In this document: positions 457-53,600 of the stretch, one piece after another | Layout: every line of letters starts with the position of its first letter | Position numbering within the stretch: position 1 is the first letter of the stretch | The notes under the pieces: generated by a model | Databases searched by the model: none | What the model was told of the DNA's origin: nothing | Seen by the model: the letters and a program-made list of their open reading frames with translations, nothing else | Made by a program: the position numbers and the translations under genes | NCBI GenBank assembly: GCA_012295275.1 | Contig: CM022665.1 | Coordinates: forward strand, 37,572,001 to 37,636,000 | Origin: Chrysomallon squamiferum | Lineage: Eukaryota; Animalia; Mollusca | Reading direction: 5' to 3' | Length of the DNA: 64,000 bases

Positions 457-505
<49 letters not shown>

Positions 506-5836: not shown

Positions 5837-5887
<51 letters not shown>

Positions 5888-7256: not shown

Positions 7257-7302
<46 letters not shown>

Positions 7303-10300: not shown

Positions 10301-10321
10301 AAAAATATCAGTTGCATCCGA

Positions 10322-12615: not shown

Positions 12616-12666
<51 letters not shown>

Positions 12667-14616
12667 TTATTAATAAATAAATAAAGTGTTTGTTTAATGT
12701 TATATATAAGATATTTTATAATTTTCAAAGGTTTCGCCTGAAATGCATGTTGATGACTATGACAACGAAAATTTCAATTCATTCAAGCTGGCAGATGAGG
12801 ACCCTACTTTGAACCGGTCCATCTGAAAAAGAAAAAGAGGATTATGACGAAGAGTTTATAAAAACGTTAGAAAAGTAAAGCCACGTAAAACAAAAAACTT
12901 GTTTATCGTCCACCCATTTCAGTTTTTACAGGTCGGGATGAAGGTTTTTATTTTTATTTTTTTATTTGTATACTGCATTTCATCTTCGGTATTTATTACA
13001 AAACTCACACAAGGGGATAACGACGGCATGCGTCCATCCAAACCGATCTTTAAGTGGCAGCCTTCCTTTGGCATGAAGCATGTCGCCATTTTCCATCTAC
13101 TTATAGACGTCACAAAAGATAGATGAACATTCTATTCTATAGCCTGACAATTCCTGATAATGGTTAAACAGTTTTAATAGTTTTAACACTTTACTTGAAA
13201 AATAATGAATAAAAATATTTAATAAAGGAGGGCAGGAGTATTTATCAGGTCTGACGGGCATGCTAAACAAGTACTTTTTTTATATTTATTTTATTTTATT
13301 ATTATTAGGTTGTTTTTTGTGGGTTTTTTTTGTAATCTGGCCTAAATTACAGTTTCAAATTATTAAACAATTTAAAGACTTCATTTTAATTCTTTGTTTT
13401 AAATTATTATCTAAATATGTTTGGCTATAATTATGTATTTAGGATTCTTCCAGTGTATTTATTCATTAATACAAGTTAAGTCTTACCAGAAGAAAATGAA
13501 AATCACAGAATGGGACTAAACATCTTTCCATATAATAATGATAATAACAATAGCTATAACATTAACAATAATAATAATAACAATAACAATAATAATAATA
13601 AATCTTGGTTTTACATTTTATAGGTCAGCCAATCATCAGTCCAAAATTTAATTAAGTGGAACGCCCTTCTCCTATTATGTGATTTTATTTTAAACCATAA
13701 GACTGAAAAGTGGAGAATGCTTAATAATACTGTCTAAGAATTAGTTCTGTTCGAGGACTGGGTAACTTTAAAATAACCTACGTAAAGGTATTGTTCATTA
13801 TAGGAATATTTCATTAACACTTGTTATCGGTACACTTTTATAGATGAATGCAGTCTACGTACAATACAGAGTGCATCAGGTTGCTTGAACCTTTTGATTT
13901 GTTGCCGAATACAGTATTAATTCTTTATAAATCTGGTTGTATAAACAACTAATTAATTACCTAACTAACTAACTAAATAAATAAATAAATAAACAAAATA
14001 AAAATTAAATTAAGAAGAAGAAAAGAAAGAAATAATCTTGTTTACACGATATTTAATTTTTTATTATTATTATTATTATTTTGTTTTTATTCTGTTTTTA
14101 ATTTCGTAGAATCTTTTATGCGTAAATGGCACAAGGAATTCAGATTAAGATCCTTGTTTTTACTGTAGGAGGTGTTGTCCAATATTTTTATTTCGATTAA
14201 TATACTGAACAACAGAACAAAAACGGTTAGAGAATTACATGTTAATAATATTCCCTGACACGGTCATGACAATGCGACACTCATTAACACTTATTAATGA
14301 GCCTCCTTCGTTTTGATCTTATTCTCGTATTTATATTCATTACAAGATAGGGAGCTTGTTAATATTGAAATATCTGGTTACCGAAGCTTGGCTATATTTA
14401 GGCAACGTCCGAATTTCACTCAAGCTGCTTAATCCAGGCTATTTGTATATCATCGAGTTTATTGTTTACCACACTGCAGATAAGTGTAGCATCTTGAAAA
14501 CAAAAGCTCCAGTGTATGTTATTTTATAAAATATACTGAGGATGATTTATGTCAAAGATAACAACAGATGCCTACCCCTCAGCATTATATATCTAATTAA
14601 ATAAGATAATTTCAAT

Positions 14617-21047: not shown

Positions 21048-21771
21048 TTTCTCCTTTTTTTTGGCTTTATCTTTTTTTCTTTCTTTCTTTCTCTCGTTCT
21101 CTATCTTTATTTCTCTTTCGCTGTCTTTCTATCTCTCTATATATGTATCTCTTTTTCTGCTTTTCTCGGACTATCGCTTTCACTTATTCTTTTTATTATA
21201 TCTTTCTATCTGTCTCTCTGTCTGTCCATCTATTTATATATGTGTGTACATTTGTAAGTATATATATATGTAGTATGTATTTATCTTAATTGTTTTGTTA
21301 TCTATCTGTCTATCCATCCATTCATCCGATCATCTGACTTTATACAAATATGAATTTATCTCGTACAAAATGTATACACACACAAACATGTGCTTACTAT
21401 CACAAGTACATGTACTTTCACTTGTTCTACACGTGATTAAAATCCGTCCAATATTTGCCACAACTAGTAATTATAACACTTTCACCAAAGCTCTATTTTA
21501 ATTAAAAAAATATTACGGACTCGAGATTTCTCAGCTTATGGACATACTGACACGCCTACCAGATTATATTGATCTTGTTACTATGGAAATCGTTTCGTTC
21601 AGGTGTATTCCGTTTTACGTTGACTATGTATATAAATACCCTGACACGGGTCTGTCGATAGAACTATTCGTGACAGCACTGGCAAAGGTAAACATTAATC
21701 TGCTTTCTTTTTTCGAGCTACTAGACGTCAAACTGGAACGAATCAAGAAAAACGTCAAACTGGATTCCAAT

Positions 21772-23128
21772 ATGAATTATTTCAGACATTCGCAAAACAG
21801 GCGACGGCGAAAATTACCGCACATTCAAAGGAAGCAGCAAGACAGTTCTATATTCTGGCCTTCGTTTCACGGGGCGCTCGCTTGGATGAGGAAGAACCAG
21901 GAAACTATAGACACGGCTGTGAAACTTCTCGAGATTTACCCAAGTCTTAATACAGGACAGATCACTCGACGTTTTTTGGAATTTTCTCTGCCCTTTTTTC
22001 GGGGCGAAACCGAGCAAGTCTGATAAAGAAACATCTGAAAACACAGAACGCTTTGGCACACAATGCGCTGTTACAATTCCATCCATCTGTGTAACCGAGT
22101 GTGGTGATGATTATACCGAAAACCTGTACGGTATGCCCTGTGCTGCTTCCAATCTTCCGAAGGTTTCTGTGATAGGTAATCCTTTATCGGGGAAAACCAG
22201 TTTTCTCAGACTTGTTAAAGATCTCAGCGAATTTTCTCTAACCGTTAAATCACCAGTCTTCGAATCGGATGTGTGTGTATTTCTTTTAAATCATGAAACC
22301 GTCTCGGATGAGGCATGCTGCGGTGATCTTGTTTTAGCAAGTACTTTGGACATACCTATTCTGTTTGTCAAACCTTTGGGATTTAAATTACCCAGCCCGT
22401 TACCCGACACGGTAATCCAGCTAGCATTGTGTTCGAGCTGTAATAGTAGTTCGTCACGGTTTAGGAAAAACCAGTGTGGTGGTTCTGCAAGAATAGTTAA
22501 AAGTATTCAGAGGCCAGCAGATAAACGCAGTGGTTCATCTCTGCGACACGCCGAAAATACGGAAAAAACTTCCATTGAAAGACGCGATTCGGACATAATC
22601 GTGCTTCTTATTGACGGTTATAGGAAAGCTTTCGTTTACGACATTAACAATCACGACGAATCAGTTACAGCTTTGAAAGAAAATATCGAGAAAGTCACAA
22701 AAATAAATCTGCCATCTGCTAAAAGTGAGGAAGGTAGTTTTCTTTTAGAAAATACTGAAATGGTTAGGTCATCAGGTAATTTCTTGAGCGTACCTGACCC
22801 AGATGCTCCACTTTCGTGGTTCGAAAATTTTGACACAGAATCTGAAGATGATGCGATGTCAGATACTTCCTTAGAAGGAAGAAGCCTTTCAGAACTTAGC
22901 GAAATTGATTCCGAAGTCGGGTTATCTGAAAAAGAGACATTTTATTTTGTTGCCGATCGAAAAAGCTTACCAGGAAAAGTTGTGAAATGGCCACCAACGC
23001 CACCAGAAATACAGTCTGAAATTTCCTCTGTAGCCGATTCGCCGATTAATTTTTACAATTTAGACTTTGAACATTTTCAAACTGAGGTGGATTTATTTGA
23101 TTCGGATTCGACACCTGAATTAAGTTAA
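21772..23128 (+). CDS. Intronless P-loop/TIR-like alpha-beta domain protein with acidic tail, in two overlapping frames (21772-22023 and 21923-23128)
   Basis: ORF 22133-23128 (331 aa) has KVSVIGNPLSGKTS (Walker A) and SDVCVFLL..C..DL..A....IPILFV..GFKLPSPLPD (TIR-like). Its frame stays open upstream to 21923 without an ATG and overlaps the frame of the ATG at 21772. Confidence 0.6.
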
Positions 23129-28272: not shown

Positions 28273-31200
28273 ATGAGTTCGTTTAGGGTAACAGCTAGTC
28301 CGGATGGTTCCCGATCTTTTGAAGGTATGTTTATAATATAGAATGAGATCCTGTATAAAAATATCAAATATGACGGAATGTTTGGAGTTCTTATCTTTTA
28401 ATATTTTTGGTTTTAAACTAGCATAAGGCCATACCCAACACCTTGGTTTATAACTGATTTTTCTTTTTTTATCGTTATCATTACTGTAGGAAATGAATAA
28501 TCTGGTATGTCCCAGGGTAATGATAACAATTACCAATTTTAATAATAATAAAAATTTAATTTGATGAACAAAATATTTGAATATTAATGCTTATTATTGT
28601 GTAAGAAGTAAATGGACTTTTTAGATGAATCTAAAGAAAAAATGCGTTTAATATTATTCGTTATATTATGAAGTTGATGCAGTAATATTAAAAGTTATTT
28701 TAAAACTTTGAAGAGATCTGAATAAGCACACTGAAATGATTGAGTGGATTGTAGCATACAAAATAATACAAATTAACTCTGTTTCTTATACTTTGAAATT
28801 TTAAATTTGTTTCCTTATGTTGAAAATCAGGAGAGAAAAAGACGAACAGTTAGTAGATTTTAAAGTATGATAAACAAATTGTTTATTTAATGAAGGTTGT
28901 TTTTCTGTTTTTTTTTTTTTAACCTCTAGATCACGATGACAGGTGGTCAGGCAAACAAAAAAGTCAGAGACGAGGACAAGGAAAATCATATTACAACAGA
29001 AGTAATTGATATTATAAATGTTTATAGAAGGTTAAATTTAAGTATTTATTAATTAACTAAACAGTAATGTAAATAAAAAATGTATAAAATTTAACTTTAT
29101 CATATTTCTTCTGATAATATGAATTATACATAAAAAGTAAATAAATAGTAAGAGCATTTTGTATTAGACTAGAAAGTGTACAGTTAGTGTTTTGTACAGG
29201 TCTTTTTAGTTGACCAAATTTAATTGTTGAACATTTTCTTACCTCGGTGGTCATGAATATTAATCTTTTATCTGTTTGTTATCCATCAATTAATTAATCT
29301 GTCACATGTCACAGTATTACTATAAATTTATGTTCTGTTTAGACAATTACAACCGAGGCAGTAACAGAGGCAGCAGGGGTAATGTTAATCCACGTTCACG
29401 GTTTACTGATGAAGATGATGATGTTGCTATGGAACCTGCCAGTGGCCACAGCAACAGACGATTGTAAGCTTTACTAAAATTTCTTCCTTTCAGTGATTGA
29501 TAATCATGTTTTAATCAGCTATAAAAACATCTGGGGTTTTTTCAGTTTACAATTAGTTTTTAAGAGGGAATTTACTTTAATGTGTTTAAGTGAGCAAATT
29601 TGAATTTTGTTTTTGTTTTTTAAATACAGAAGAAAATATTGACTGCATTTTTACCTATTGAAGGAATATAAGTATGTGTATACCAGTAGTTATTCACATT
29701 TTTACATAAAAACACAATTAAAATACAGGATCTGTGAAATAAACAAATTTTCGGGTTGTTTGAAAATAAGAATCCATTTTAAATATCCTTTCTAAACAAA
29801 ATTGTTTTTAATGTATAGGATCTGTGATAGAATCTGCTTCATAAGAGTACATTAATATCTTAGGCTTCCACTACTGACCAAAAGGTTTTAATTTTTGTTT
29901 AAAATATTTTAACTTTATTTTTTATAATTTACTTTTCTCTTTTTTTTCTTTTTTTTCCCAGTAATCCATATGGACAAAACAACAGCTGGAGCAGACGAGG
30001 AAACAAAGGACGTTCTAATTCTAAAGGAGGCAGAAACCGTGATGATTACCAAAGAAACAGTGAGTAGCTATATTGAGCGTCTGCAGTTCATTTCAGATTT
30101 ATATGTAGCATTTCACTCTTTTTTAACCCTTATTCACATTTGAAAAATAAATCTGTAGAATGATGGAATTTCATATTAAATTTAATATATTAAAAAAAAA
30201 AAAAAAAAAAAAGGGTTTTATAACTAATGAACAATGCAGTTATATATATTTTTGTTGTTGTTGTTTTTATTATTTTGTTTTACATACATATAATTAATAA
30301 GAAACCATGAAAGCATATCAGAATTTGGATGATAACATTTAAGACAGACTGTTTACTAGAGACAGCTCATCCCTTTCAGATAAATTGAATTAGACATGAA
30401 GGTAATATATAGAAATGCAAGTACAAAGTTAATACATTAAATTTTATTTCAGGAGACACTAGTGTCATGCTAAGAATGGGGTTGCCAGTCAAACAGCAAA
30501 ATCAGTGGTACAAAATAACAGTGAGTCAGCATCTACTTAGAAATTAGATACATCTACAAATTTTGTTCTGTTGATTTACAAATAATTTGAATGGACTGGG
30601 TAAAAAGTTTGATAGTTAATGACTTGACTGACAAAATACAGACAGAATTTGTTCAGCAGAAAGTAAAAAAATTTTAAAAAGTTTTTCTGATCTTAAAACT
30701 AGTTAACACTAATAATAGTGTGATAAAATATTGGTAAACCATATGTGTGTGTGTGTGTGTGTGTATATATATACATAATAGATTAGCATTTTAAAAATAG
30801 ATGTATTGCTTCACTTAAAATATATTTATTTAATATTTAATATTATGCAAGCAGAGTTTGATATTCTTTGGTTGTTCTTTTTGTGACTTTGACCATAACT
30901 TTGTTTTTCTCTTTCCAGATACCACATGGCAAAAAATCAGGAAAGGATGAAATTCTTAAACTGATTACATCAGTGATTGATGGCCCATTTCAGCCCATAT
31001 ATGTAAGTTTTCTTTATCATTTTATTCTGTTTGAATTGTTGGTAAGCTAAACACAATCAGTTCAAAATGAATGACATTAAATTAACATTATCTTAAATGT
31101 ACAATAAACAGTTTTAAAAGGTGTTCATAGGATGGCTGCAATTGTTATGTTTGTTATCTTCCCATCAATAAACAAGTATCTAGGCCAGTGTTTCTTAACC

Positions 31201-34200
31201 ATTTACTTTTCAGCACCCCTTTTCATATACATTTTTAAAGATATGGCCTTAAGATTAAATTTTATACTGTCACAGAAACGCAATGAATTGTGTAATTATA
31301 AATGATTAGCTTTTATCATTGTTCTGTGTTCTCATAATGTTGAAAGGCTGTGCTATGACCTAGCTGAGAGTCACTAATCAAGCAGTCCATACAACAATGA
31401 AAAAAAAAATGAAAAAATTTTCATCATAAAATCAAGCTCAAACAGGAATATTTATTTTAAATGTCTGATTATAATGTACACTGTATAGTTAAGTATTATT
31501 TATTTATTAGCCAATTTTTATTTTTATTATTTTGTTTTAATCCTAGTTTCATCATCAGAGTAAGGATGCTTTGTTTTATGTGAAAGATAGGGATCAAGCC
31601 TCTGCACTGAAACGTATCAGCAGAACAATAACATTACCAAATGGATTTAAGGTTAGATTGTGTTCATCACTAAAATAGCTGCTGCACATTAGTTAAGAAA
31701 TGGCATTTTAAAAAGTGAAAAATAAGAGCATAACATGAATAAGATCAAGCTTATACTGGAAGATAAGAATCATTTGCAGATCCATGATCTTTGAAGTACA
31801 TTTTGTATGTGCTTAATTATTGTTTACCTTTTGTTTCTTTTATATTTTTTCTTATAATTATTATTGTTAACAGTGTGAAAGTTTATTCACCACAAAGATA
31901 GCAATTTCTTTTATAAAACTCTGGATACACAAATAATGTTTTAGTATGTGTGTGACTGTGCATGGTAATACTATCAGGTAATGTTATTTGATTTAAATAT
32001 GAAATCTTGACTCAGTATCAGTAGCCACCAGTGTTCCCTCTAATCTCTGTGTGCACAGTTGTGCAGTCATTGTATTGGTGCTGAATGCATTTTAATATAA
32101 ATCAGATAATTTGGCTTGGAAATGTATTCTGTTAAAAAATTGTTTACATATTTATGCAACAAGTGCCTTCATTTAAAAAACAGTTTTTTACTTTTTTTCC
32201 CTATCAGTTACTTTATCACTTATCTTGTCCATAGTGTATGTATTTATTTGTCTATATTTCATGGGGAAATCAAAACTAATTCATCAAATATAGCATATGG
32301 AGGTTTCTTTTTCCGATAGATTTTTGAAAAATACTTATAAAATTTACTTTTATATTTATAAGGATTTTCTGGGGCATTATTACTTTTTTCTTCTTTATAG
32401 ATGATTATTGTTGTTAGTCCATGCAGTCCACCTGTTATACCCATGGACAAAGAAAGCATTGAGAAGTTACAGGTAAAATATATATTTTAATATCTGAAGA
32501 TGTTTTTGGTTTTTTTCTGATTAAAATCTAAAAATTATTTTTTAATATTGTAGATATCAAAATATAAACTGCTTTTCTTATTCTCGTTTACTTTTGTAAG
32601 TAAGTACATACATCTATTTTACTTCCTACCCATCAAGATATGAGCTAGCACTTTTTACATAACTAAACATTTTTTTTTTTTTCTTGTTTTGAAACTTTGG
32701 TTTGTTTTGACTGTGAGTATAATTCCAAATTTTTTACTAAAATTCTTTATTGATCATCTTACTTAATAAAAGCAATATTAAGTTTCTTTTATTAATACTC
32801 TGCTGCCATTTAAACATTTTTTTTTGATATGTTCTAGGTAAGGATGAGTCAAAGGTATGATCCTGTGACAAAGTTTCTTGATCTCAGTTCATTGTATCAA
32901 GATGAAGGTAAGACATATTTTATTATTAAAATGACATAAAATTAACCAGTATGCATTTAGATCATTTATTCCACCAAAGGTATACTACAGCATTTACATT
33001 TTATAATGATTAAAAATGTCATGAAATCTTTCATGTGATATTATAGACCTACAATATGATATGCATAACACTGTGATTGCTTGGTTATAATCGTAATAGA
33101 AATTAAATAATTTGGCTTGGAAATATATTCTGTCTAAAAAAAAACAAAAAAACAAAAACAACAACTTTGTTTACGTAAAATTACTGCTCATTATTTTTGC
33201 AAGGTTAAAAACAATTTTTTTTTTTTTTTTTTTTCAATTATTTTACCATTTGTCCTGTCCATAGTGTATATTTTTATTTTATTTTCAGTGCTGTGTGCAG
33301 GTGGTCTGTACCTAGCCCTCAACAGACAAAACACAATGTCAAATGTTGTTAAAATTATTAAGGAGAATATACCTGAGGTCTGTATTAATTTAATCATAAT
33401 TGTCAAAATTCTTTATTGCATTATCACATGCTACAGTAATGTTGCATATACTACTTTTTAAAAATAATGTTTTGGTCTAACTCATCAATGTTTTGGTAAA
33501 ATTTATTTATTCTTAAAAGTAATACACTGTAAAACCAAGAATTGGCTATAAATGTAATTGTGTGTATGTGTGTGTGTGTGTGAACTACAGATAATGTAAT
33601 CTCTCAGTACTAAAAAATATATACTGCAGATATTTTAGACACAGTTGTTGATGTTGTATTAAATAATATAATAAAAAAGGATGTCTTTCTGTAGTGAACT
33701 AAAATTGAAAATAAATGTAAAACTTTTGTATTTATTTATTAGCTTGCTGGTTTGGATCTGAGTAATAATCGTCTTCTTTCATTAAGTCATCTGACAGATA
33801 TGGTTTCCGCAGCACCTCAGGTCACTCGACTGAATATTGGCAAAAATCAGGTAATGTTGTTGTTATATGTTACCTGATATCAAAAATTTTCATACTTCAG
33901 GGGATACAGAATGTTTAATATAACAAAAATCAAAAAAAAAAAATTCCTCTTCTGTCAGATACATATTTTTTGGTTATCTTACTTTTAATAACTGCCTTGT
34001 TTTGTTGTGAATAAATATGATATACACAATCAAAATATGTTTTTGCAACACCCCTGATATTTTATTTCTTTTGTTTACCTTCAGTGATGCAAAATTTATT
34101 AACAAATAGCTCTAGTTTTAATACATACGTCTTCAGCCATTTTGAACCTTTGTTGACATACTGTGTACAGGTGGAACTCTCTACTCTCATACTGTATGAT

Positions 34201-34622
34201 GGTATAGCAAGAATTATCAGCTAGAAAAGGAGACCATGCTATCCAAAAACAGTCAGCTGATAGTGTATTAAATAAGTGGTTGGATAAAATGTGTCAAGTG
34301 ACTGAAAACCCACACTTCTTTGCTTATCTGTTACCATTTGTCTGCAATATTTGATCAGCTGTTTCACTGCTACTTCATAAAAGTTTATATAAATAAAATT
34401 CAAGCTGTAAGCAAAACCATGTACTTGGTTTTGGAAAAGGTCTCAGACACAGAGGCATTGAGGAAAAATGATACAATAATATTGTCTAATTTTGATTTTC
34501 CCAAGTGCACATTGTTTTACTGAACTGCGTTTGCTTAGATCTGAGCAAATTTCCAACAGAATGTTTCGAAAATTTCAGATATTCTTTATAGCACTATTTC
34601 TCATGTCATATTACAGCTGTAT

Positions 34623-34659
<37 letters not shown>

Positions 34660-37600
34660 AAAAAGCAAAGAAAAATGTCAAAACAAACAAATAAAAGCCT
34701 AAACAGAAAATGCTTGTTAACTATTTACTTACAACATTTGAATGCATTTGACTTATCAGTTACGGAGATCCAGATTTTGAGCTGAAAGCTATGAAATCAA
34801 ATCAATCTGGGCTTCTTGTGAGTTTGATTTTTTTTTTTTTTTTTAACCTCTTTTTAAATACATAACTTATATAATGTTAAAATTTCAACCAAATCTAATA
34901 AGAATTAAAAAAAAAATTATTTCACTATAACATGACTCCTTAATTATTAGCGTGCTATCTCATATATGTAACTAAAATGATCTGAAGTACAGCTGATCCT
35001 AGATAAGTATCAATCAATCTTTTTTAATTTTAAAATGTTTCCATTAATAAATTTAGTAATTATTTTGGAGTTATTACCTTGTTATTAATGAATGATCTTT
35101 TAACTTTGGTAAATCTAAATTACATTAAAACAAAAAAATTTTCATTTATTTTTATTAAGTTTATTATTACCTTGATATTTTCTGTTTCTCTTCTTTTGGA
35201 TTCCTTTTTGTATGAGCTAGTTGATATGTTAAAAAGTGAGTTCTAAGGATGTAGATCAAAGTGAAATTTGTATATATGTTGAAAAGTTGAAATTTATTTT
35301 TAATTTTTAGTTGAGGTCTATTGATGAGCTTCAGAAGATTGAAGGGTGGAAATTGTTGGAGCTTGTTTTGGATGGCAATGATCTGTGTAATCGTTACAAA
35401 GATCAGACAGAGTATACTAGGTAATGGTATCGATCATTTGAGTTACCACATGTTCAGACATTGTGATCATCAGAATGCACTGGCTGGCTGATAACCACCA
35501 ATGGGGTAACTGATGACAGGGCACATTAAAATGAAATATAAATTTAAACAAAATTTTAACCCATAAATATACAGCTAGAAAAGAAAGAAACAATGTGTGT
35601 ATCACACAAAAATGAATGGTAATATTTTTTTATTTTAATTTTTTTTTACCCCATAATATCCTTATAACATCTGAAAATCTAAAATTCTCTTTTCTTGTTT
35701 TTCTTTGATTTTGATTTGATTTGATTTATTTATTTTTTTAATAATATTATTATTATTATTATTTTTTTTTTTTTTTTTTTTTTTTAAAGACTCCTGGGAA
35801 TAAAAGCATAATTTTTAGCAAGTATGGTGATTGTTTGGTGTGCTGACAAAATCTTTTCAAAGTTTTCATTTTATAACTCTTATTAACGCATACCACTGGA
35901 TTAGTATTGGAAATCTTACAAACATTTCTGCCTCTACTGATGATCTCATTTGACAAAATAAACAAAAAGGCTGAAACCAAAGCAAGCCAGAAATCTTTTG
36001 ATTCAGTGTCATCAAGTGAAATGGCCAGATAGAACTGACCCTGAAAAAGGGTTAACAATGTCCTGAAAAGGACATCACTTTTTTATTGAGGCCTGCAGAT
36101 AAATTATGCTGACCAGGTGACGCAGCTTTGCTTCCGATGACGGGTAAGATTTCCCAGGAAGGGGGACAACCTAAGACAGGGGCAGCTGGGACCTGGTGAA
36201 AAAGCAATTTCAAAAAAAAAAAAAAAAAAAGGATCGTTGCTAAGAAGAAATGATGATTTACTGAATCTGATTTCAGCTTGCCAATTTATGAAGAAGGCAA
36301 ACCAAAAATGATGGTAGCTTTTGTCAGTTGCAGTCTCAACTTTTATGTTTGGTTTTGGTTAAAACAGATAAAACTGTTGCTAAACATTCAGCAAAGTGTT
36401 GATCAGTGTTTTTTCTTTTCACAGAGTCAAAAGTAAAAAAAAATTCTTTGATGGGAAAAAACTGACTACAAATTATTTGACAAATAGTTAACAAACATTT
36501 TGTTTTTGTCTTCATTTAATGCAAGATTTGATCTTCGAATTCACATTTGTCTTTGATTGATTCCAAATATTTTGATATGGAATTCTTGTAAAGGTTTTAT
36601 TCCAATTAATAGCTTGACTTCACTTGTGCAGAATATCTCCTCAGATGTTTTGTCAGATGCACTCAGACTGCAGATTAAATTTGAAATATTTTGTGAGGTA
36701 CCCAGACAGTTACACCATATTTGCTTTGTGTATAGGTACCCAGACAGTTATACCATATTTGCTTTGTGTATTTTATGTTGTGTTACAAATGTCCAGTAAT
36801 TTTTTTTCCTACATGTTTGGGTTTTGTTTTTGTTCTAAAATAATTTTCCATCATTATTATGTATGTAGATAATATCAGTATATAAAATTAAGAAAATGTT
36901 CCACAAATCTGAAACCTTTATTAAGTTTTCTTTATTCATAAAACTGAGTCTCTCCTTTCTTATTTCTCTTTTCTGTTCTTCTTTTTTCCCTCTTTTTTTT
37001 TTTTTTCTCATATTTATAACATGAAAATAGAACTGCATATAATTCATTGTCTCCACCATTAATAATGTTTGGTTTGTTTTATCAATAGTCTGAAATATAT
37101 TTTATGAACATCTTGGTTTTTGTTATGTATGTATATTAATGTGACACTTTTCCAGTATGGTACGAAAGAAATTCCCCAAAGTCATCAGCCTGGTAAGTTA
37201 TGTTGCTGCTGTTGTTGTTGTTGTTGTTGTTTTTTTTTTTTTTGGGTTTTTTGTTTTTTATATTATATCTCAGATTTAGACTAAACTTGTTTGTTAATTT
37301 TATGAAGTTTCAGTTTGACTAAAGATATTAGTTTGTAAGAATTGTATTTGTAATGCTTGCAGATCAGTCATTCTGAAATTGGATATTAGGTCAAACCAAA
37401 AAAAAAAAGAGAGGGAGAGAGATGCATTTAATTTAGAAGATAAAAGTTATGAATTATTTAACAGTACTTGGAATAGGTCTCATTTCAGTATTTATAGAAT
37501 AACATGTCTAATTGATATTTGTTGCACAATAATACTAATTATATAACAGTGATGAGTAGAATATTGCAATGTTTTTATATTTTTCCTCAGGATGGACGTG

Positions 37601-40600
37601 AACTTCCACCACCTATAACATTTGATCTAGAAACTTCCACAGTTATCCCTCCATCAAAGGTTGTACATTTGGAATAGATATAAGTCTAAATACAAAATCC
37701 ATTTATAATTCATATACAGCTTAAATAACCTGCAGATTATATATATAAAATAAATTGTGCATTACATAAAGATTGTGTTTCAGATTATGGAGTTTATCGG
37801 AATTAAAAATTTCTGATGTTGATTCTAAACCTGTACAAAGATTTTATCTGATTTATATGTATATTTTTTAAAACGTTTTACAGTAGTGCATAAGTTCAAA
37901 GAATGAAATGAATATTTGTTCTAATACTTTCAGTAAATTAATGAAAGGTATAATTTGTTAATCATTTAAATATATAGTAACTTACTTATATCATGTAAAT
38001 CAGGAAAATGTAAATGAAAATATAAATTTTCTTTAATGGTGTGTTAGCTGATGAAATAAAGATGTGTATAATTTTATCTGATCTGTAAGTAACAAAGTAT
38101 TTCTTAATATCGAATTGAATAGAAATTCTGTGAATGAGAAAGATCCTTTGTTCAGTGTTAATATATTTAAAAAAAGAAAATAGTTTAAATTGGGGAAGTG
38201 TTTTCATTAATGAAGATGTAGTTCTGCACAACTTTGTGACAAAGATAATATTTACTGAGATATTAAAATTTAATAAATAATCATTTGTTTCATAAAATCA
38301 GGGAAGTTATTTCATGAATGAGGAGGTGAAGACTGTGGTTGTGAAGTTTCTCAAGGAATACTATACAATCTATGATTCAGACAACCGACAGCCATTACAT
38401 GAAGCCTATCATGAACAGGTGGGTGTATAAAGATTATTACCTCAGACCAGATGATATACATAGAGTGTGCTTGTTTAGTTAAAGGATTGGTTATGAACAT
38501 ATATAAGATTTGAGATGTGATATTTAATACTTTCAAAAATTTACAATATTTTTATTTTAGTTGAATATAAAGAAAGTTTTAAGTTTTGGCTTGCACTTTT
38601 TTTTCTTTTTTTGGGGGGTAAATGTAAATAACAATCTCTTTTTTCTTCTTCTTCAGGCTGTTTTCTGTATTGCAACAGCTTACAACGACACCTTGGAATA
38701 CAAGTAAGTTTTAATTTTCAATATTTGTTCAAATTTATTTCTGTTTTAATACTCACTTTATTTTCTTAGTTACTTTACTGAAAATCTGAAATTTTTAGTT
38801 TTTTTTGTTATCATTTTTTTAAATTTATTTATTACAGGCAAGCACCACTCAAAGTTTACCAACAAGAAAGCAGAAATATTTTTAGAGTGAAAGATGCAGG
38901 TATGGACTTGCGTTTGACATAACTATTGATCTTAAATTATATGACTGAAGTATCATTAATAAATCTTCATTCACTGTCAAGAATTATAAACCAAATGTAT
39001 ATCTAGGCCAGATTAAATTACTTGCAAATTTTATTTTATTTAATTTTATTTTATTTTATTTTATTTCTTTGTTGACAGCAAGAAGAGAAAGATGTATGAA
39101 ACGTGGACACATTTCTGTTGTGTCACAGCTCTGTCTCTTGCCAAAGACAACACACGACCCAAATTCATTTATTGTTGACATTAACATTGCCATGGTGAGT
39201 AGGAGTATTTGGTAATATTAATATGATTTAAATATTTTGAATAAATAATAATCCTCTGCATAACACTATTTGTTTTGGAAGGTTTTTAGTTGTTTAAATT
39301 CTGCCAAACATCATAGCTTTTTTAAAAATAATTTTTTTATTCCTTGTTATTTGGTAAACCCATGTGAAAGAAATGTTCTGTCTTGTTTTAGTATTGAATA
39401 ATACCATTTTAAAGAAAAAAAAAAAAAATCACATAATTTTATTCATTTAGAATTCTTTCAAAGGAAAAAAATATTGTTTTCAAATATTTATTTTTTCCTC
39501 TTTTATCTTTTCCAGCCAAATTTGTTAAGCTTTAGCTTATCAGGTATCTTTAAAGAAAGTAAGTAATTTTACTCCTTTTTTTATTTTTTTTTTTTATTTT
39601 TATTTTTTATTTTTTTGAAGTGTCTTGAAATGTTTGTTTAAGGATCAGTAGTTTTATATAGATCTTTTGATTAATCTAACATTATTACAAATTTTTTAAT
39701 TTGTTAATCTTTTAAATGTAACAGATATTTAAATTAAACATTGTAATAATAATCTTCATTTTTCTTTTTCTTTTTTAAATCCTGGATATAGTTAATGTTT
39801 TTGGAAAACACGCTCAAGATTAGATATTTTATTTGTTTTTATGTATTTTTTTTTTTTTTTTTTTTTTTCCCTCAGGTGAAAACAAGTCTGACAAACCACC
39901 CATACGAGCATTCAGCAGATTATTCGTCACTGTGCCTTATGGAACAGGGTAAAGTTCTCTTTATTAAAAGTGACATTTTTCTTTTCAAATTGAAAAATAG
40001 AAGAGATTTATATATATATATATTGGCTTACGGTGAGATTTGTCTGAAGATCAAGTCATGTTTTATTGAGTAATTTCCCCATCCAACCATTGTTCTGTGA
40101 TTGTGTATCAGAATCCTCGTGTATCTTTTTAAAGCATACCAGTCTTTTTATTTGTAAAAGATTAAAAAAAAAAAAAAATGGGGCTTCTTTAAATTTGATC
40201 AAAACAACAATTTCAAAAAATAAAATAAAAAATCAGTTAACAGTTTGTTTTGTCATTTATTATGTGAATGTGTTTTTAAAATTTGGGCTCTTTTGTTTTT
40301 TCAGGATGGTAATAACTAATGATGTTTTGACAATCACCAATGCCTCACCAGAACAGTCACAGGTACCAGTCATTCAAACATATATATATATATATATATA
40401 AATAATGTACAATGGATGAGGATGGTGAATATTTTCGTTGTATTAAAGCCGAGTTCTGAATTTGTTTCATGAGGCCAAAATGAAAAGGAAACTTTGATGT
40501 TATCATGTTTCTTTAAAAAAGATGTATTGAAAATAAAATTCTAATATATAAAAAAATAAATTATTTTCATTTTCTTTTCTTGCCTAGAAAAACTAAGTTT

Positions 40601-41895
40601 CAGTTTTACTAAAAGATCTTTGCTTGATTTTGAAAAATCACTTTAGAGAATTAAAATTTATTCTGTAGTAGTCATATTTCTGTGGAGGTTGCAGAGGTTG
40701 AACAAGCCAAACATTTGCAGAATTAAAAAAATAATAATAATATTAATTTTATTATCCATTCTTACTGTTTGTTCCCTGAATTAAAGAGGGATAATAATTT
40801 TTTTTTTAATTGTAGTCTGCATTCAAAAGTACAGGACCAACCCCATCTTCTAGTCCAGTATCCACTGCCCCACCTGCAGTGCCATCCACTAGCTTCTCCC
40901 CTCTGCCAGGAACCAGTATTCTACCACACAAAGAAATGGTGGAGCAGTTTTCTTTGGTATCTGGAATGAATTTAGTGTGGTCACAGAAGTAAGTGAATTT
41001 TATTTCTCGTTGCACAACAGAATTGAAAAATGTAATACAAATTGTTTAATCTGAAAAACATAAAGTCAAATATTTAAAAGTTTTTGAGAATTTAAAAGTT
41101 ACCTGAGATGTTATAAAATTGTTAGGTCTATTCTTTATATAAAGTTCTAAGCTTCCGTCCAAGTGTTATATTTTAAGAAGTAACTTTAAAGCTACCTTTC
41201 ATTCAGAATTTTGCTAAATAAAAACAATAAGATCTGCAAAAGAATATATATTATAAAAAATGATAAACACATTTTATTCTGCAGCATGTTTTGGCAATTC
41301 AGTATTACAGTCAGAATTCAACAAAATTTTGTTTTATTTAGATGTCTTGAAGAAAATGGATGGGATTATGAAAAATCTGGACTTGTGTTTACAAATTTAC
41401 ATGTGAGGAAATTATTTTCATTTTCTTTTCTTGCCTAGAAAAACTAAGTTTCGTTTTTACTAAAAGATCTTTGCTTGATTTTGAACAGGAAATAAGAAGG
41501 AGGGGATTATATACAAAGCTTATTTAAAATGTTCATTTTAGATATCAGTTTTTTCAGTATTTTTAAATAATGTTAAGTATTTTTTTATTTTTGTTAATCT
41601 GTAGGACAAGAAAATATGATTTATCTCTTAATTTATTTGATTGAAAGTACCTTCACATAATATTAATAGTAATTGAAGTACTGAGGTTCAGAAAAAATTT
41701 ACTCCAGAAAATATTATCAATATACCAAGATATGTAGATGGATTAAAGATATATATCCAAGTATGCTGTTTTATATGTAATTTTTATTTCTGAGAAAGAT
41801 ACATATCCAAATATTCTATTTTATATGTAATTTTTAAAATATTCTTTATCTTACAGGCACAAGGAAAAATTCCTCCAGAGGCTTTCATTAAGTGA
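28273..41895 (+). CDS. NXF1: Nuclear RNA export factor 1 (TAP), 24 coding exons, 647 aa; RRM, LRR, NTF2-like and UBA domains
   Basis: GT-AG exons 28273-28324, 28930-29001, 29343-29463, 29962-30059, 30453-30520, 30919-31002, 31547-31651, 32401-32472, 32838-32907, 33289-33377, 33743-33850, 35311-35420, 37156-37192, 37591-37659, 38302-38418, 38657-38703, 38838-38899, 39079-39194, 39516-39558, 39876-39948, 40305-40362, 40816-40988, 41342-41402, 41857-41895 join in frame (1944 nt). Hallmarks: EDHDDR, RFNPY, WYKITIPHG, LDLSNNRL, FPKVISLDGRELPPPITFD, LPKTTHD, RAFSRLF, SGMNLVWSQKCLEENGWDY, GKIPPEAF. Confidence 0.96.
36112..36197 (+). promoter_or_regulatory. Constitutive transport element (CTE), single-internal-loop type, in the NXF1 cassette intron
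   Basis: Contains CCGATGACGGGTAAGA (36134-36149) and CAACCTAAGACAGG (36167-36180), the two strands of the NXF1-binding loop of type-D retroviral CTEs as recalled. Closed by ACCAGGT/ACCTGGT, CAGCT/AGCTG and TTTCCC/GGGGGA stems. Confidence 0.88.
36696..36771. repeat. 38-bp tandem duplication (2 copies, 1 mismatch)
   Basis: aggtacccagacagttacaccatatttgctttgtgtat followed by aggtacccagacagttataccatatttgctttgtgtat. Confidence 0.95.
40559..41485 (+). repeat. ~75-bp dispersed duplicate in NXF1 introns 21 (40559-40634) and 23 (41410-41485)
   Basis: aattattttcattttcttttcttgcctagaaaaactaagtttc...tactaaaagatctttgcttgattttgaa occurs twice, nearly identical. Confidence 0.9.
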
Positions 41896-43287: not shown

Positions 43288-46200
43288 TCATATTTTTTCA
43301 AACAAGTTGTCTCTGTATTCTTGTGGAGATTCAGGAGGAAATACTGGATAAACTGCTGTTTGTACCAGACACCTTACCAAATCTGCAAGTAGTCGTCTGC
43401 AAATAATCAAAACAAAACTTTGTTAACAAAACTTTTGAAATAAACGAAGATGAAAGATTTAACATTTTAACTCCTTGCTGATTCCGCCACAACATACATT
43501 TTAAGGGAAAAGATAAATTTTGGAATAACGTTGATACACAAAATATAACCAATTAAAACTTCATGCCAAAAGCAGTTTTATTTCCCCATGTATTTCTAAC
43601 TCCCCTTATACTCTTGGTTAATAAAATAAACCAGCTAATCAGTAAACATCCACATAGCTGTAGCAATAACAGGTTTGATTTTAAAATGTTACACCACATG
43701 CTGGCTTATAGCAAAATGACATGTTTTTATGTAGTTTTCCTTGAGATAGAAATCTTACTCTGAAACTTTGATCTACTCTTTAAGATATTTCTTCAGGTCT
43801 TTACACTGTTTCTAGAAGTGAACCAAATAACATACTGTGCACATGCTGGTCCTCCATTTATTTCCAACAACCAGATTTTGAAGTTTTCATCAACCATGAA
43901 ATCAAATCCAAACAGCTGAAAGCATTTGTAGTCTAAACTATGCGTAGAGATTTGCTGAAAGTAAACTTTTAATTAAAATAACAAATTCTTCTACTGTGTA
44001 TGTTATATATTCATGTTTATCTAGATAAACTCTGATAATTTGACATTGTTTATAATTACCTGTATAGAGAAAATACCATTAAGTGAAAGGTTAAAAACAA
44101 AACAAAGCTTTAAAGATGGATAAGTGTAAGAATAAAATATTAGGATTATGCACTTAATTAAGCTATTATAACCATAAATCGGTGACAAATGATGTGGAGT
44201 TGACTGTAAAAGATGCCTTGCTACCAACACTGTTAGGAGTATCCCAGGCAACTGATTCCTTTCTCATATTATTTTAAAATCATGATTGTCATCTGAAAAG
44301 TAATTTTTGTTCTGATTCAGATATAATATGTTATTACCTCATGTACTATTCCAAAACACATTTTGATGATAGATTTTATCTGTGGAATAAGTGTTGTCTT
44401 CATATTGACGTTGTATTTTTCTTGTAAGTACCTGAATTGGAGCAAATGATATCACTCTCATAAATATTTGGATATTAATCAATTACTAATGAATACTATA
44501 ATTACACTAAAGAGATTTTAACATTATGAGTAACTGCACTAGCTGTTAAAAGCACATTTGTTATATAATAATTTTCCTGTCAGTACTTACAAATATTATT
44601 TTAATAACTTTGAGATTATAAATATAAAATAATTCATCTCATTTTATGTAACCAATACATTTTATTTGAAAGATGAAAATGGAATGTGGTTGTGAAGCAT
44701 CTTTACTGTATGTATGTGTATGTGTGGTGTTCATGTTGAAGTGCACTTTAAAATATAAATTAACTTTTAAAAATGAAACACCTGTCAAACTGATCGTAAA
44801 ACATTTCATTTCCTTCTTCATATTGTCCAAACTTTGATGACCTTTCCTCTTGAAGATTATGATTGGTCAGATGAGGAATGACATCATCAAGGTTATCTAG
44901 AGAATATTCTTCTGAAGAAGTGCGGAGGACACCTTCTCTGTACAGATAAACAGTATATGAATGATCCAGCAGCACCCAGCATCTAGATAAATGATATATA
45001 ATATATTTTAATGATACTTGTTGCATTATACAATGTATTTTTACAATAATTTCTGCATCATACAACACAGGAAACAATAAGTTAGTATGTGATTTATTTA
45101 ATAGTTCATCCATTTATAAATAGGTAACAAGACTGGTCTAAATTAACTGATGACCTCAACTGAACATTGTCCATGTTCAGTTTTGTTCCTTTAAAATGAT
45201 GCACTTCCCAAGGTAAAAACATTTTTTAAAATCACATTTTCAAATTTAAAGAAATATCTGAAAATCTGTGAATAATAAAATTTTCACAAAAAGATACAAA
45301 ATTAAAACAATAAATGAAAAATCAAATTTTAATTACACTCTCCTAATTATGAACTTTCTATGGAAATCAGTGTAAACATCATAATTAAGTCATCACAGTT
45401 AGATACAAGTTTAGATAACAAAAACTAAATATTAGATTAAACACATCAGAAAATATATTATTGTAATATTACTAAATATTTGATGGTTGTATGTATAAGC
45501 TTGCTCTGTTTTGTTTGTGTTTTTTTGGTTAAATAAAGTTAACAAAATGGAAACATGCTGCCATATATCTATTAGTTATTTTATGATTAGCAGAGAGTAA
45601 AGTTTAGCACATATCATTTGGCCAGACATAGATTAATAGCTGGAATGGTAATTCTTCAAAGCAGTCACAGAGGGGATTTGATGCTGGAAACCATAATGCC
45701 TTAGGTTTGCAGTCTACAGCTTTCTCCTCAAAATGCTAAACAAAGTATTGCATTTATTACCTGATATCAAATTTTCGGCCACCATTTAACAAAAGAGGTT
45801 TCTGTATGTACTGCTGAATAATGTATGCCCTCTGCTGTCTGTCTATTTCTGCAAGCAGTTGTCTCACGTCACGTGAAATAGAAATTCCCTCACCTACAAA
45901 TTATTTAAATGTATCGGAATAAAATAATAAAGGAAAGGAATTTCAGCAGAACATCAGTTAGTTCTCCTCACAGCCCAATATGTCTTCTTCATAAAAAAAA
46001 TTAATAAATGTTTTTAAAATTACAAATTAAAATGAAAATTTTTAATAAATGTATTAATGAATATTTGTTTTAAATGATACCTCAGTACATTTCAGTGTTA
46101 ATGAATATTAAGTATCACTAATTTTTATTTTTGTCATAATAAAAATGTAAGAGTAGATCTACTGCAATCACTACAATGGCCTCTGTCATTAGTTAGCTGC

Positions 46201-47336
46201 AAGATATTTTAATATGTACCTTTCCATGATCTGATTTGACACACCAGTCATGGGACACTTACAAAGTAACCCAGTGGATACTGATCTACACATAATTTAA
46301 TTTAAAAAATCAGAAACAGTAATAACCAAGACATTTGTTATTAAGTTGCACCTTTTGATCCAGCAGTAATTTTTGAAATCCATATCACATCTTTTCCTGA
46401 TGTTTTGAAAATGTTATCTAATTCCAACAATTCACTTCTCTCGTCATGTCTTGGTGGTCTTTTTAATGGAAAAGCTGTTGAAATCTGACATTCTTGGTCC
46501 TTTGGAAAAATAATAAATGATGGAGGCAACCAATCAAAGAGAGGTCTGTTCAGTGTAACACAATATTGTTTCAGAGTCCTGGAATTAAGGAGGATTTATT
46601 TATTACTTTATACCAGCATAACTTGAATCCATCAAGTTATTTTCGTTTATTAGTTTTGAAATAGACCATGTTAAAATTCAAGACTTTCCATCTAGGCAAA
46701 AGATCATTTTAACTTTTTTTACTCAAAGCAAACTGTTAAGTGACTGATCAAAGGAATAAGTTTTACTTTTACCTAAGTACGTTAAGTACAGTTATGATAA
46801 AAGATGGAAATCTGCTATCAGCACTCAATGGACTTTTCTAATCAATAAGCAGCAAATGATCTTTAATCTTTAATATGCATGCTCTTGTAGGCTGTAAAAT
46901 ATATATCAAGACATATACATCAGTCTTAAAGCAATGGCAGAAATAGGAACTGCCCAAAGTGTGCACTGAAGAAAACTGATCCAGTGAAATTTTCATTTCT
47001 CACACCTGTGTTCTAACCACACATACATGTAAAACTAGTAAATCAAATTATAAATGTTAATGGTCATAAGAAAAAACAGTATTAGATTAATCCTGAATAA
47101 ACATTTTAAAAAAAAAAAAAACATACTGACAAATTTAAACAGTTATCTCTGTAATACCATTGTAATACTAACCTAATCATAGATACTTTTCTGCATATGA
47201 CTGAAGAACCTCTGTAGTAATTAACAAGTTGTTGAAGTCCTTTAACCTGACCTGAAATAAATATTAAATGTAACTTAATTAAATTATTCTCAACAAATAC
47301 AGATTCTTTTATATATTTTTTTTAAATAAAAATATC

Positions 47337-48102: not shown

Positions 48103-50624
48103 GATAGTTTACATCAAAATATTTCGAAATGTTCATTGCACCGATAAAAGCTATAGCTAAGATGTGTTTGAAACTATTTACATTAGAGACCACAAAGTGG
48201 ACTCGTTCTCTTAAGTAAACAAATAAAAGATGGGTATGGACTGTGTATCAGTCTATGTTATGTGGCAGGCGGAAACGCATCAGTAATACGTGTAAGTTGG
48301 ACATGATTCACAAGTTGTTCTTGAAAATGCTTATCCTTGAAGAACCCATAAATTCCTAAGAAAAGATAAAGATTTAGACTTGAAAACGTAACATGTTTTT
48401 GTTTCAATAAATATATATTCACAAGTTATATGTGTGTGTACTCAATCACACAGACATGCACGCAGTCCTGCAAAATAAAGATAACAGCAAGTTTGATTTG
48501 ACCATAACAAATAAAATTATTTTCCCCTACATGCCCAACCCCCAAAACCAGATGTTTAATGCCCATAATTTGTTTTATCTAGAAAACTAAACACTCATTT
48601 CTTACAATAACAAGTACAGCACATCTATTTATAAATACATCCAAACATACATGTATTTGTCCTAAAGTATTAAAGTTTTCATACATTTACAAAATCCATA
48701 AAAACAACTAAATGTTCAGCTAACTAGTAAATATCTTCTTGTATGATATATCTCTGTACTGCCCATGCAGTTGTTATGTTGTCTTCCCATGTCAGTAGTA
48801 ATTGATGATGTGCTTAGAAGACTGATGAAAAATGTTTTGTGCAAAATGCTGTAATGGCCAGAAGTAACATTATGAGCCGATAATTATTAACAAACTTTTG
48901 TCTTAAATTAGACCTTGCTTGAATTTATTTCATGATTCTCATTATGAGAAAGTGCATGAGGACATTGCATATGCATTCATATTGTTTGGTTTGCTTTACA
49001 TTTGTCTAGCTTTCCATGTGTTAGTTTCATGTGGAACGCTCAACAACTGTAGTAACTACAAGCAGTATTTCAGGCCATTGCAATGATTTTAATGAGAATA
49101 AAATGACGTTTTTGTATGGACAATCCGCTTATGACCACCAGTGATAAAAAGTTTAAAAACCATTTGGTTTAATAAAAAGCTTTGATGTTTTGATTTTTTT
49201 TTTTTTTTTTTCGTTTTTCATTTTGCTTTATTGAAGCTTTTTTCTTCTTCTAGTTTAGTATAAAACTTTTTTCTTTTAGTTTGCTTCTTTTTAAACAAAA
49301 ATGTATTTTAATTTATTATTATCCCAAATACTAATAAAGTTTCAGTATCAGAAGCATAAAACAATATGTATCAAACGGTGTTAATTTAAGAAAATGCCTC
49401 CCCATTGCAAGTAAAAAACTGATAACAACTGTTACTGAATTACATTTTTTATTTTTGCCAATTCTGCCAATACAACATAGACTGAAATGGTCTAATGTAC
49501 ATTGTACAAATAATATCTTACTAGACAGAAAGTCTCCATTATTATTTCTTCTAGTAATTGGAATCATATTGTTTAAATAATAACTGTGTCATTTCTTTTA
49601 ATAAAAAAATTATTTTGCAGTAATTTATACAGGCACCTAAACAGTTATCCTTGGTGTATAAGTTTTCAAAATTTCTGAAAGTAAATCTTATTGAACAACC
49701 ATGCCTGATTCTTTTTCAACTCAGAATATAATTGTGTGTATTCATGTGTGTGTGTATGTGCATCTGTCTGTCTCTATAAAACATTATTATTATATTGCAC
49801 ATATCTGAGTATAAAAGGCAGCTGATGTTAATGTATCAAACAGTAAATAATAAGTTAATTTTATCATTACCATTAAAATTTATACAAGCCTAATCCATCT
49901 CTCTTTTGTCCAAAAAATAATACAAAGTAATTTTAGCAAGTCTCCCAAAACAATTTTGTTATTAATCATGTATTACATTATTATGTACAATAACTTTAAC
50001 TCTTTTAATCAGTAATTTTTTTACTTTTAAATGATTTTTTTGGGATGTACATTTAGTGACATTTTTCAAGGATGAAGAACACTAAATGAGACATAATCAC
50101 CCCACACTGTCTAATTAACTGGTAAAAACAAAACCATGTAAAATGTAGTAATTACTAAGAAAACACAAAGAAGCAGTATTCATTTCTAACTTCCAAATCT
50201 TAAACTAAAGTGTTTTTTGTTTCATAAAAGTAATGTTAGCAATTGAAAGAAGTTGTTTTTCTTTGCAGTTTTCTTAAAATTCCAACAAAAAAATGGTAGC
50301 CAAGTGTATTGAAAATCCTCAATAATTACTTTTTCTCTAAATGAAAATAGTTATGGCTGATGTATAAAATTTGTTATCATATTATATTATCTATTTCAGC
50401 GTAAACAATAACAGAAAATAAAGACACAAACAAGGCATATTTTACTAACAGTTAAAAATCAAAAACACCAATTGTTAAAAGGTATCTGTTATTTTGATAA
50501 AATCATGCATATTTATTTCTCAGACAGAGATGTCTGTAAAAATCTGAACAAATGTAATAACAGTTAAAGCAGACCCAAGATGACAACAGAATAAAGGCCA
50601 TCAATGAAAAGAATAATAATACAT

Positions 50625-53600
50625 TCAGTAAATGTATGGAAAGATCCGGTACTTGACACGCAGACAATAGTGATTCCAACTTGGACCATACTTCTTTTTA
50701 CAACGATCACTGTCACGTTTCTCCCGATGCACCAACAGACACACAAAATATACTGGATAGAAGTAGGGCAGTAAACTGAAACCTGGTGACAAAAAGTACA
50801 AATTATAATAAATAATAGTAATAATAATAAAAAGAATATCTAAATGTTAAAACAGATGGAATTAGAGTATATGTGACTGAAATGTTTTTATTATGTCCTT
50901 GAACAAGAAAGCATGAGAAAAATACTACTGCAGAATTAACATGATATTCATTACCAATAAATAAATATTGTTTAACTCATATTTGTCGCATATAAAGCAG
51001 ACTATAAATATGAGTATGAAAGTAGTTCCATGCATGCCTGTCTGCGTATGAATGCAGTTAGCTTCACTTAAAAACACAAAATCCTTGTTCACAAATATTA
51101 AAATAAAAAATGCTATGTGACTTTGACATACCACAAGGCAACGACCAAGCCAAAGCCATTAAGATATCACCAAGGTAGTTTGGCTTCCTGCAGAATCCCC
51201 ACCAACCAGATATGAGTAACTGTTTGCCACAAGATGTATGGATAGTTTTCAAATCTATTAAAAAGTAAAAAGTTGACAAAATCACTAAACATTTTCTGAC
51301 ATATAACCTGTAAATTCATCAACAGAATTTCCATTATAGAATGATAAGATTATGATAGCAAATTCAGAAAGTTCTTTTATTACTAGTACCATTTGCTCTA
51401 TAGCAGTGCTGGCATTACAGTAACAGGATTATTAAACTCCAGTACTAACTGAAAATGGTTATTTGACAGATGAAAAAGTTTTAATTCTGAAATTTATAAA
51501 GATAAGATCAATCCCTCTGCAATAAAATATAAATAAAACCATACGAGAAAGCTTAGGATCATAGGGATTTTTCCTGAAATCATTCTTCTCAGAGTTAGAA
51601 CTTCTGAAGATATAATAACCAATTACTGGAAAAAAAAAAATAAAAAAATAAAACAATTGAAAGAAAATGCAAAGAAAGTAATTACAAGTATTAACAATAC
51701 TAAAGACTGGCCACAAACATGTCATACACCCTCATAATCACATCACATCAACTTTCAAATGTGCAAAGTGCAAGTTTTTACTTTATTTCAAAATATGTAT
51801 TATTTATATTTATATATGATTGTCTTTATAAAAGGTAACATAACTCATATTTGTCACATATAAAGCATAGTAAATCATTTCAATAATGATGCTTCAGAAT
51901 GAACATTAAAAACCAACTGTCTTGCTTTTAAACCAAGATAATGTTTTTTAATAATCAATTTTTTTTTTTACTATGAGAAATGTTTAAAACAAAAACAGAA
52001 AAGAAAAGTCTTACAGTTGAGAAGTCCAATGCCACACATTACATTCAGGCTTAAGTCAGTGGGATGGTTCAGCAGAAAGTGAGGTTGCAGACAATACAGG
52101 AAAGGAACCCACACCAGATCTCCAAATATAAGCATATATCCAAACCCTTCAAGCATGATATCCATTGTTGTAAGTATAGCACACTGAAATTTTAAATTAA
52201 AATGCTTGATAAATAAGAAACGTTAGTAAATGAATCTGTTTTATATGAGATGACATCACCACTGCAAAAAAATGATATTATAAGCTGTATTCTATTGTTG
52301 TTATATTTCAGTATAAAGATTGGACAGCAAAAAAACAAACAGACATACAACCCAAAACAACTACCCACCAAAAACATGGTACATACCTCGAAAAACAGAG
52401 CATCAGCCACATATAATGTCTGGAAGACAGTCACCATTGTAAGAGCTGGAGGAAATGTGCCAGTATCTTTATATGCCTTAAGGAGAAAGATAAAATCCAT
52501 CATAACCCAGCCAATCAAACCTGGGCGCATCTCAAAGAAAAATTTCAAATCAAAGTTCCCAATACGAGGATTCAATTCACGACCAACAAAGAAATCGTAA
52601 AGCACACATCCTGCAAAAAAAAAAAAAGTGGAAAAAAAAAAAAAAAAATGAATTTGTGTAGTGAAATAATGATATATTCCATAACAGTCTATAATTTTAT
52701 CAACAGCTTTAAATGCTAGATTGTTTCTTCTCTCAAAGATGAATATCCATGATTTCATCATTAGTAATGGTGTTTAACACAATGGTATTTACAAACAAGT
52801 GCTGAAACACTGATGTTATATTATGAAGTTTTATACTTTTAGGCTATCTTTTAAAAGAAAAACATGGTTATATTCACACTGCACTGAATTCCTGCCACTT
52901 ACCACTGTTTCCACCTGGTGCCAAATCGCAGTTATCAGCATATCGTGCTTTGATGTACAATACAATACTCAAGAATACAGCAAAACAAAATGCTGTTGTT
53001 TGTATCTTGTCGAATTTGTCATATACCACGGTCAGTGGATATTCATAATACACTCCAACAGCAAAAGCAGCAAAGGTGATTAGTAAAGCATAAAAACCTG
53101 AAATGTTATAAATATTAACAAATACAGCAAACTTGAATGTGACATCTGACCTGTAATTTCATCCAAAATAATGAGGGTGTAATAAAAATAAAAATAAGAA
53201 GAACAAAAAATTTCATCCTTAAAATAAAAAAAATAGTATCTACAGTATAATAAAATATTCCTACTTACATTCAGTCACAAATTTATTATTCTGACATTCA
53301 TGTAAGAAATTACTGCTTTGAACTTTAAGGTGAAATTTTAAATTTATTATTTATTAGTATTAGTTATTATATTTCTTTTACCATTACAACGATAGACAAG
53401 TTTTTTGCCCGATTTCAATGGCTGTCCTTCAGCTAAATGACCTATTGGGAGCAAACTAAGAATTATCTGAAACAGCAACCATCCAAAAAATATGCATGTG
53501 GCTTCTAGGTCAAAGAAATATGTCCAGTGAGGAATGGGTGGAAATTCAAAAATTGAGCAACTGTTCTAAAAACAAAAATAAGACAAAGTATTAGCAATCA

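Follow-up and report, generated by a model that had tools for sequence, protein, structure and literature searches.

A CTE-type hairpin in the vertebrate-equivalent NXF1 intron of the gastropod Chrysomallon squamiferum and its probable descent from the snail-vertebrate ancestor

The longest intron of the NXF1 gene of Chrysomallon squamiferum contains an 86-nt hairpin that shares all 24 core bases with the CTE repeats of viral contigs, and this intron lies at the position of the vertebrate NXF1 intron that harbors a cellular CTE. Based on the position of the element, its predicted fold, and its recurrence in a second animal NXF1 gene, we propose that it is probably a single-loop CTE already present in the last common ancestor that vertebrates share with snails. 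The predicted role of this CTE is to be bound by NXF1, so that mRNA of the NXF1 gene itself can leave the nucleus with the intron retained. Intron 10 of NXF1 was reportedly described by Li et al. in 2006 as the site of a cellular CTE in vertebrates. Cellular CTEs are documented in NXF1 of over 30 mammals, zebrafish, and coelacanth, and a BLAST search found none in birds, reptiles, C. elegans, or Drosophila (PMC4338338, accessible text). The sequence-only reading of this DNA had regarded the element as unreported in Drosophila and nematodes, in agreement with the BLAST blanks in both. Nowhere does the accessible text of the same paper use the terms invertebrate, mollusc, lancelet, or sea urchin. 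Our search of mostly open-access literature yielded no report of a CTE in any invertebrate NXF1, and an earlier description may exist.

The NXF1 gene and the host intron

All coordinates refer to the window, the whole stretch of 64,000 nucleotides that was analyzed (GCA_012295275.1, contig CM022665.1, positions 37,572,001 to 37,636,000). The gene and the features around the intron of interest are:

28273..41895, + strand, NXF1 gene, 647 aa encoded in 24 exons, the frame free of internal stops (named relative mapped, splice sites read)
35311..35420, + strand, exon 12 of 110 nt, where the LRR domain ends (RNA contigs, splice sites, Pfam)
35421..37155, + strand, intron 12, 1,735 nt, phase 2, the longest of the gene (RNA contigs; position that of human intron 10)
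35422..35424, + strand, in-frame TAA one codon into intron 12 (sequence; same arrangement in locus L015)
37156..37192, + strand, exon 13, 37 nt (RNA contigs, splice sites)

All 23 introns of the gene have GT..AG ends, six of the splice junctions are backed by RNA contigs, and single exons match the Pfam families LRR_NXF1-5 and NXF_NTF2. The hairpin had been said to lie in the intron between NXF1 exons of 110 and 37 nt, and this is what the RNA contigs show in both of two RNA runs, where they skip 1,735 nt bounded by GT..AG. A candidate exon at 34757-34819 was rejected, as RNA contigs skip from 33848 to 35309. When human NXF1 intron 10 is retained, the product has 356 aa, 18 of which are intron-encoded (PMC5170612), so that human intron 10 must follow residue 338. 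Exon 12 of the snail ends at the column aligned with human residue 338 (alignment A1), and the proposed identity with the intron of the vertebrate CTE therefore holds. A mammalian protein supplied the human numbering in A1 after correction for a shift of one residue, which was set by means of R128/K129 (PMC4330393). Read-through into intron 12 is predicted from the sequence to add one residue before the stop, giving a protein of 350 aa with the RRM and LRR only, unlike the human sNXF1 with its 18-residue tail (PMC5170612). The stop of L015, the second NXF1 gene described below, likewise lies one codon into the CTE intron.

The snail element resembles the vertebrate NXF1 CTE (PMC4338338, accessible text) in its gene, its intron position, its single loop, its location nearer the 5' splice site (715 nt away, compared with 978 nt to the 3' splice site of intron 12), the presence of a donor-like word beside the loop, and an early stop in the intron. 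It differs in having a protostome host, and the comparison with the vertebrate CTE, made feature by feature, is indirect.

Elsewhere in the window, a duplicated block of ~6.8 kb (248-6000 and 7048-12700) has in each copy a - strand frame of 323 codons with NHL repeats (4131-5102 and 10938-11909, with a Pfam NHL match on the first). Two long overlapping frames of 173 and 401 codons occupy 21502-23128 on the + strand and have no Pfam match at E 0.01. The neighbors of NXF1 on the - strand belong by Pfam to the tubulin-tyrosine ligase family (43300-47300) and the ERG4/ERG24 sterol reductase family (50500-54700).

Fold and uniqueness of the hairpin

The element and its parts are:

36112..36197, + strand, CTE hairpin, 86 nt, with a single 6x6 internal loop (predicted fold, core pattern)
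36136..36147, + strand, 5' core strand with loop GATGAC, stem GGGT, and bulge AA (pattern, fold)
36141..36149, + strand, 5' splice-site-like word CGG|GTAAGA within the core (sequence)
36150..36166, + strand, apical 6-bp stem with 5-nt loop, its letters varying among copies with pairing retained (MFE folds)
36168..36180, + strand, 3' core strand with stem ACCT, loop AAGACA, and closing GG (pattern, fold)

Every stem and loop strand of the hairpin as first described was found in its place in the window, namely ACCAGGT (36112-18) with ACCTGGT (36191-97), CAGCT with AGCTG, GCTTCC with GGGGC (the stem containing one bulge), GGGT with ACCT, the apical TTTCCC-AGGAA-GGGGGA, and the internal loop in which GATGAC (36136-41) faces AAGACA (36173-78). 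Folding returned this hairpin as the MFE structure at -32.8 kcal/mol (z -2.58), a stability equaled in 2 of 200 shuffles, and with its flanks included the z value is -2.25. The first 109 nt of intron 12 show no such excess of stability over shuffles (z -0.87). With the core fixed and the remainder shuffled, none of 500 sequences matched both pairing probabilities of the element (0.94 for the upper stem and 0.72 for the lower closure), and its energy was reached by seven of the 500. This local folding test is not a general one for CTEs, since it is failed by all three viral halves and by all eight copies of the repeated element described below; in the case of the viral locus L002 it fails because pairing runs across the repeats.

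A scan of the 64-kb window for the two-strand core pattern gave a single hit, compared with none in 100 shuffles, and each core strand by itself, with up to two mismatches allowed, also has a single occurrence. The hairpin had further been credited with keeping three CpGs in a CpG-poor intron. It does hold three of the seven CpGs of intron 12, but the argument is weak and does not amount to independent evidence: the intron has 4.0 CpGs per kb, a value inside the span of 0-8.3 for the 16 other introns whose CpGs were counted, and other copies retain just one of the three. Rfam gave no match to the window element or to the viral copies, and hence is without this family. Also present in the intron are a run of A of ~19 nt located 3' of the hairpin (36212-36230) and a 38-nt tandem duplication whose copies are 97% alike (36696-36771).

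CTE copies in viruses and in other contigs

An exact pattern taken from the window was searched against 2.9 million viral contigs and matched two loci, L001 and L002, which we take to be type D retroviruses. Together they contain three repeats, each of which agrees with the window at every one of the 24 core bases, and in this respect the retrovirus-type character assigned to the snail element is upheld. L002 folds into two internal loops, each of which has the 6x6 loop, the GGGU/ACCU stem, and the AA/A bulge seen in the window. The type D CTE has twofold AAGACA loops, a motif that is named in the literature and forms the NXF1 site (PMC4330393). The snail element is thus like the CTE of type D retroviruses (MPMV/SRV) in its 24 core bases, 6x6 loop, 4-bp GGGU/ACCU stem, and AA/A bulge, and unlike it in that the two viral repeats cross-pair into two loops whereas the snail has one loop with its own apical stem. 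The flanking stems of the snail CTE are unrelated in sequence to the viral ones. Across nine aligned CTE copies, 25 columns are invariant.

A scan of metagenome contigs gave 14 loci, ten of which look like repeated elements; two of the loci are without flanking A's. Closely related CTE cores in L003-L005, L007, L009, L011-L014, and L016, six of them with two near-copies of the 3' strand, have the look of a repeated mobile element, and L006 and L008 were taken as chance matches.

One of the metagenome contigs, L015, carries a second NXF1 gene, with exons of 105, 78, 70, 89, 108, and 110 nt where those of the window have 105, 72, 70, 89, 108, and 110 nt. Its CTE is at 2975-3062, which is 906 nt into the intron that follows the 110-nt exon. 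When this intron was compared with intron 12 of the window, the CTE was the sole significant match (47 nt at 85%, with E 1.3e-9, the second-ranked match having E 2.2). The element is therefore conserved in another NXF1 intron, as had been supposed, with the stems of the hairpin altered yet still paired and the rest of the intron not conserved. The L015 protein is ~42% identical to its best named match, from Owenia. In the protein tree described below it falls outside the 15 molluscs and is grouped with them and Owenia (94), and its pairing with Owenia, based on 28% of the columns, has a support of 80, which weakly suggests a place beside this annelid.

A third single-loop CTE is found at 548-638 on the - strand of L010, an AT-rich contig of 2,436 nt without exons that may represent a long NXF1 intron from a different animal; its apical stem is wholly different and fully paired. 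Among the window, L015, and L010, all 18 cells of the apical stem are paired and four of the six pairs are changed on both sides, as judged from predicted folds, which lean towards pairing.

Host of the contig

The closest named protein to the window NXF1 is that of Gigantopelta (88% identity on one exon and 79% overall), with Haliotis at 62%. In a quick maximum-likelihood tree of 36 proteins, from which eight rows were omitted (Spirometra, because of its long branch, and seven unnamed proteins), the window NXF1 is sister to Gigantopelta (SH-aLRT 100), within gastropods (98), and within Mollusca (95). The contig is accordingly not vertebrate, and the worry that the hairpin had come in with a vertebrate or contaminant sequence is not borne out. 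Nine runs, from one organism and three studies, contain 80-92% of the words of the stretch. In addition, the hairpin and 317 nt of the AT-rich intron upstream of it lie on one contig in a DNA run (no differences) and in an RNA run (one difference, outside the hairpin), the two runs being from two studies.

RNA coverage of the intron and the NXF1 protein

RNA contigs span the boundary of exon 12 and intron 12 in both RNA runs, which are from one study and whose library may hold DNA, and such contigs carry no level, strand, or compartment information. In one run they cover most of intron 12, including the hairpin, whereas the other run has no contig over the hairpin itself, a gap to which no weight is given. 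In one run parts of introns 14 and 15 are also under RNA contigs. The contig depth at the exon-intron boundary and at the splice joint is 46.7 versus 11.8 in one run (X8) and 10.8 versus 13.5 in the other (X9), values that cannot rank the parts of the gene. RNA contigs of both runs likewise cover the gene's second-longest intron, intron 11 (33851-35310, 1,460 nt), which may be co-retained or slowly spliced.

On the protein side, human residues R233 and R249 are presumably contact residues for the CTE. The equivalent of R249 is kept in the window NXF1, and that of R233 is Y, a position that is also changed in one fish and one lizard protein. The RRM residues R128 and K129 of human NXF1 (PMC4330393) are both K in the window protein (alignment A1). 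In the same alignment, the equivalent of R128 is R or K in seven of ten molluscs and in none of five insects, and the N that precedes R249 is F in all five insects. These insect changes are possibly a trace, on the protein side, of the loss of the CTE.

The intron that is retained in Drosophila is, we assume, the one between the 110- and 37-nt exons. An intron-containing nxf1 transcript exists in Drosophila (sbr/nxf1), and the targeting of this transcript by SBR is stated as unknown in the accessible text of that report (PMC8151460). Unlike the snail, Drosophila is without a CTE-like sequence by BLAST (PMC4338338).

Proposed mechanism and alternative explanations

We now put forward a mechanism for the snail gene that is modeled on the vertebrate system. 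Specifically, NXF1:NXT1 would bind the AAGACA loop via the RRM and LRR, and mRNA that keeps intron 12 alone would be exported. The exported mRNA would either give the 350-aa RRM-LRR protein, without the NTF2-like and UBA domains, or be subject to NMD. By either fate, less of the message would go into full-length protein when NXF1 is abundant, and a feedback loop would result.

An orthologous and functional element might instead act mainly in the nucleus, where the donor-like word would recruit U1 snRNP or serve as a decoy, so as to slow the removal of intron 12 or stabilize the pre-mRNA with little export. The word CGG|GTAAGA is indeed a strong one, is retained in both L015 and L010, and is described for vertebrate CTEs (PMC4338338), and since part of it is hidden within the GGGT/ACCT stem, access to it could be gated by a bound protein. 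Such an action would, however, leave unexplained why the AAGACA strand and the 6x6 loop, which constitute the NXF1 site (PMC4330393), are invariant, and no splice joint from the word is seen in either of the two RNA runs, whose contigs drop rare forms, so that we regard a mainly nuclear role as rather unlikely. Less likely still is an independent origin, either by convergence on an optimum for NXF1 binding or because the snail intron received the CTE with a mobile element that carried it or by horizontal transfer. CTE copies do occur in viruses and in the ten metagenome loci that resemble repeated elements, and the blanks in birds, reptiles, Drosophila, and C. elegans (PMC4338338) mean that inheritance requires several losses. 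Against this, the element is in the same intron in vertebrates, the snail, and L015, has the single loop of the cellular CTEs, is present in one copy only in 64 kb, has no similarity outside the core to the viral and element loci, and has stems that diverged and are still paired. Descent of a functional CTE from the snail-vertebrate ancestor remains our preferred explanation.

Two trivial explanations carry little weight. Contamination by vertebrate DNA or a chimeric assembly has nothing in its favor but the strength of the CTE match and is highly improbable in view of the gastropod character of the NXF1 protein, the joining of the hairpin to AT-rich intron in DNA as well as RNA runs, and the nine runs of one organism that contain most of the words of the stretch. 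A chance match was gauged by means of a prokaryote control, in which a looser pattern was run over 596 billion bases and gave 29 loci, 28 of them distinct contexts that were scored (L018 repeats L006). All 29 were taken as chance, the lower closure being formed in none of the 28. The full 24-base pattern does occur in one of the 29 (L043), which is the one point on the side of chance, but this locus has neither a CTE fold nor an NXF1 exon, and the prokaryote rate corresponds to ~3e-9 per intron of such length. Place and fold together exclude chance for practical purposes.

Age of the NXF1-CTE circuit and its significance

The sequence-only reading had suggested that the NXF1-CTE circuit predates the split of protostomes and deuterostomes, and the data support this, on the basis of two protostome-placed genes, one of which is weakly placed. 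It had also suggested that the viral CTE is a captured copy of the host element. This is the hypothesis already stated in PMC4338338 and not a new one, and only the age changes. What is new here is the range of the cellular CTE, which extends from bony vertebrates to protostomes and implies a bilaterian age. We favor, with somewhat less assurance than the descent of the snail element itself, a broader view in which NXF1-CTE feedback is pan-bilaterian, has been kept near letter-for-letter for >550 million years, and disappeared from insects, nematodes, and birds alongside changes in the binding face of NXF1, the retroviral CTE being a late copy.

The published range of the cellular CTE stops at bony fishes in the accessible text of PMC4338338, and the mollusc gene and the second protostome-placed gene would move its origin to the bilaterian ancestor. 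The two genes would also close the remaining option that a retrovirus was the source of the vertebrate CTE. A published survey lists 25 DNA segments as conserved in both vertebrates and non-deuterostomes (PMC10735318), and a word search of its text and one supplement found no mention of NXF. If it is pan-bilaterian, the CTE would join a very small set of non-coding elements whose sequence can be recognized in both vertebrates and protostomes. The predicted tail-less short form in two invertebrate genes would serve to separate two ideas on the retained mRNA, one of feedback control and the other of a short protein that is functional and has a tail of its own. The gains and losses of the CTE across animals would offer natural pairs for the study of RNA-protein co-evolution.
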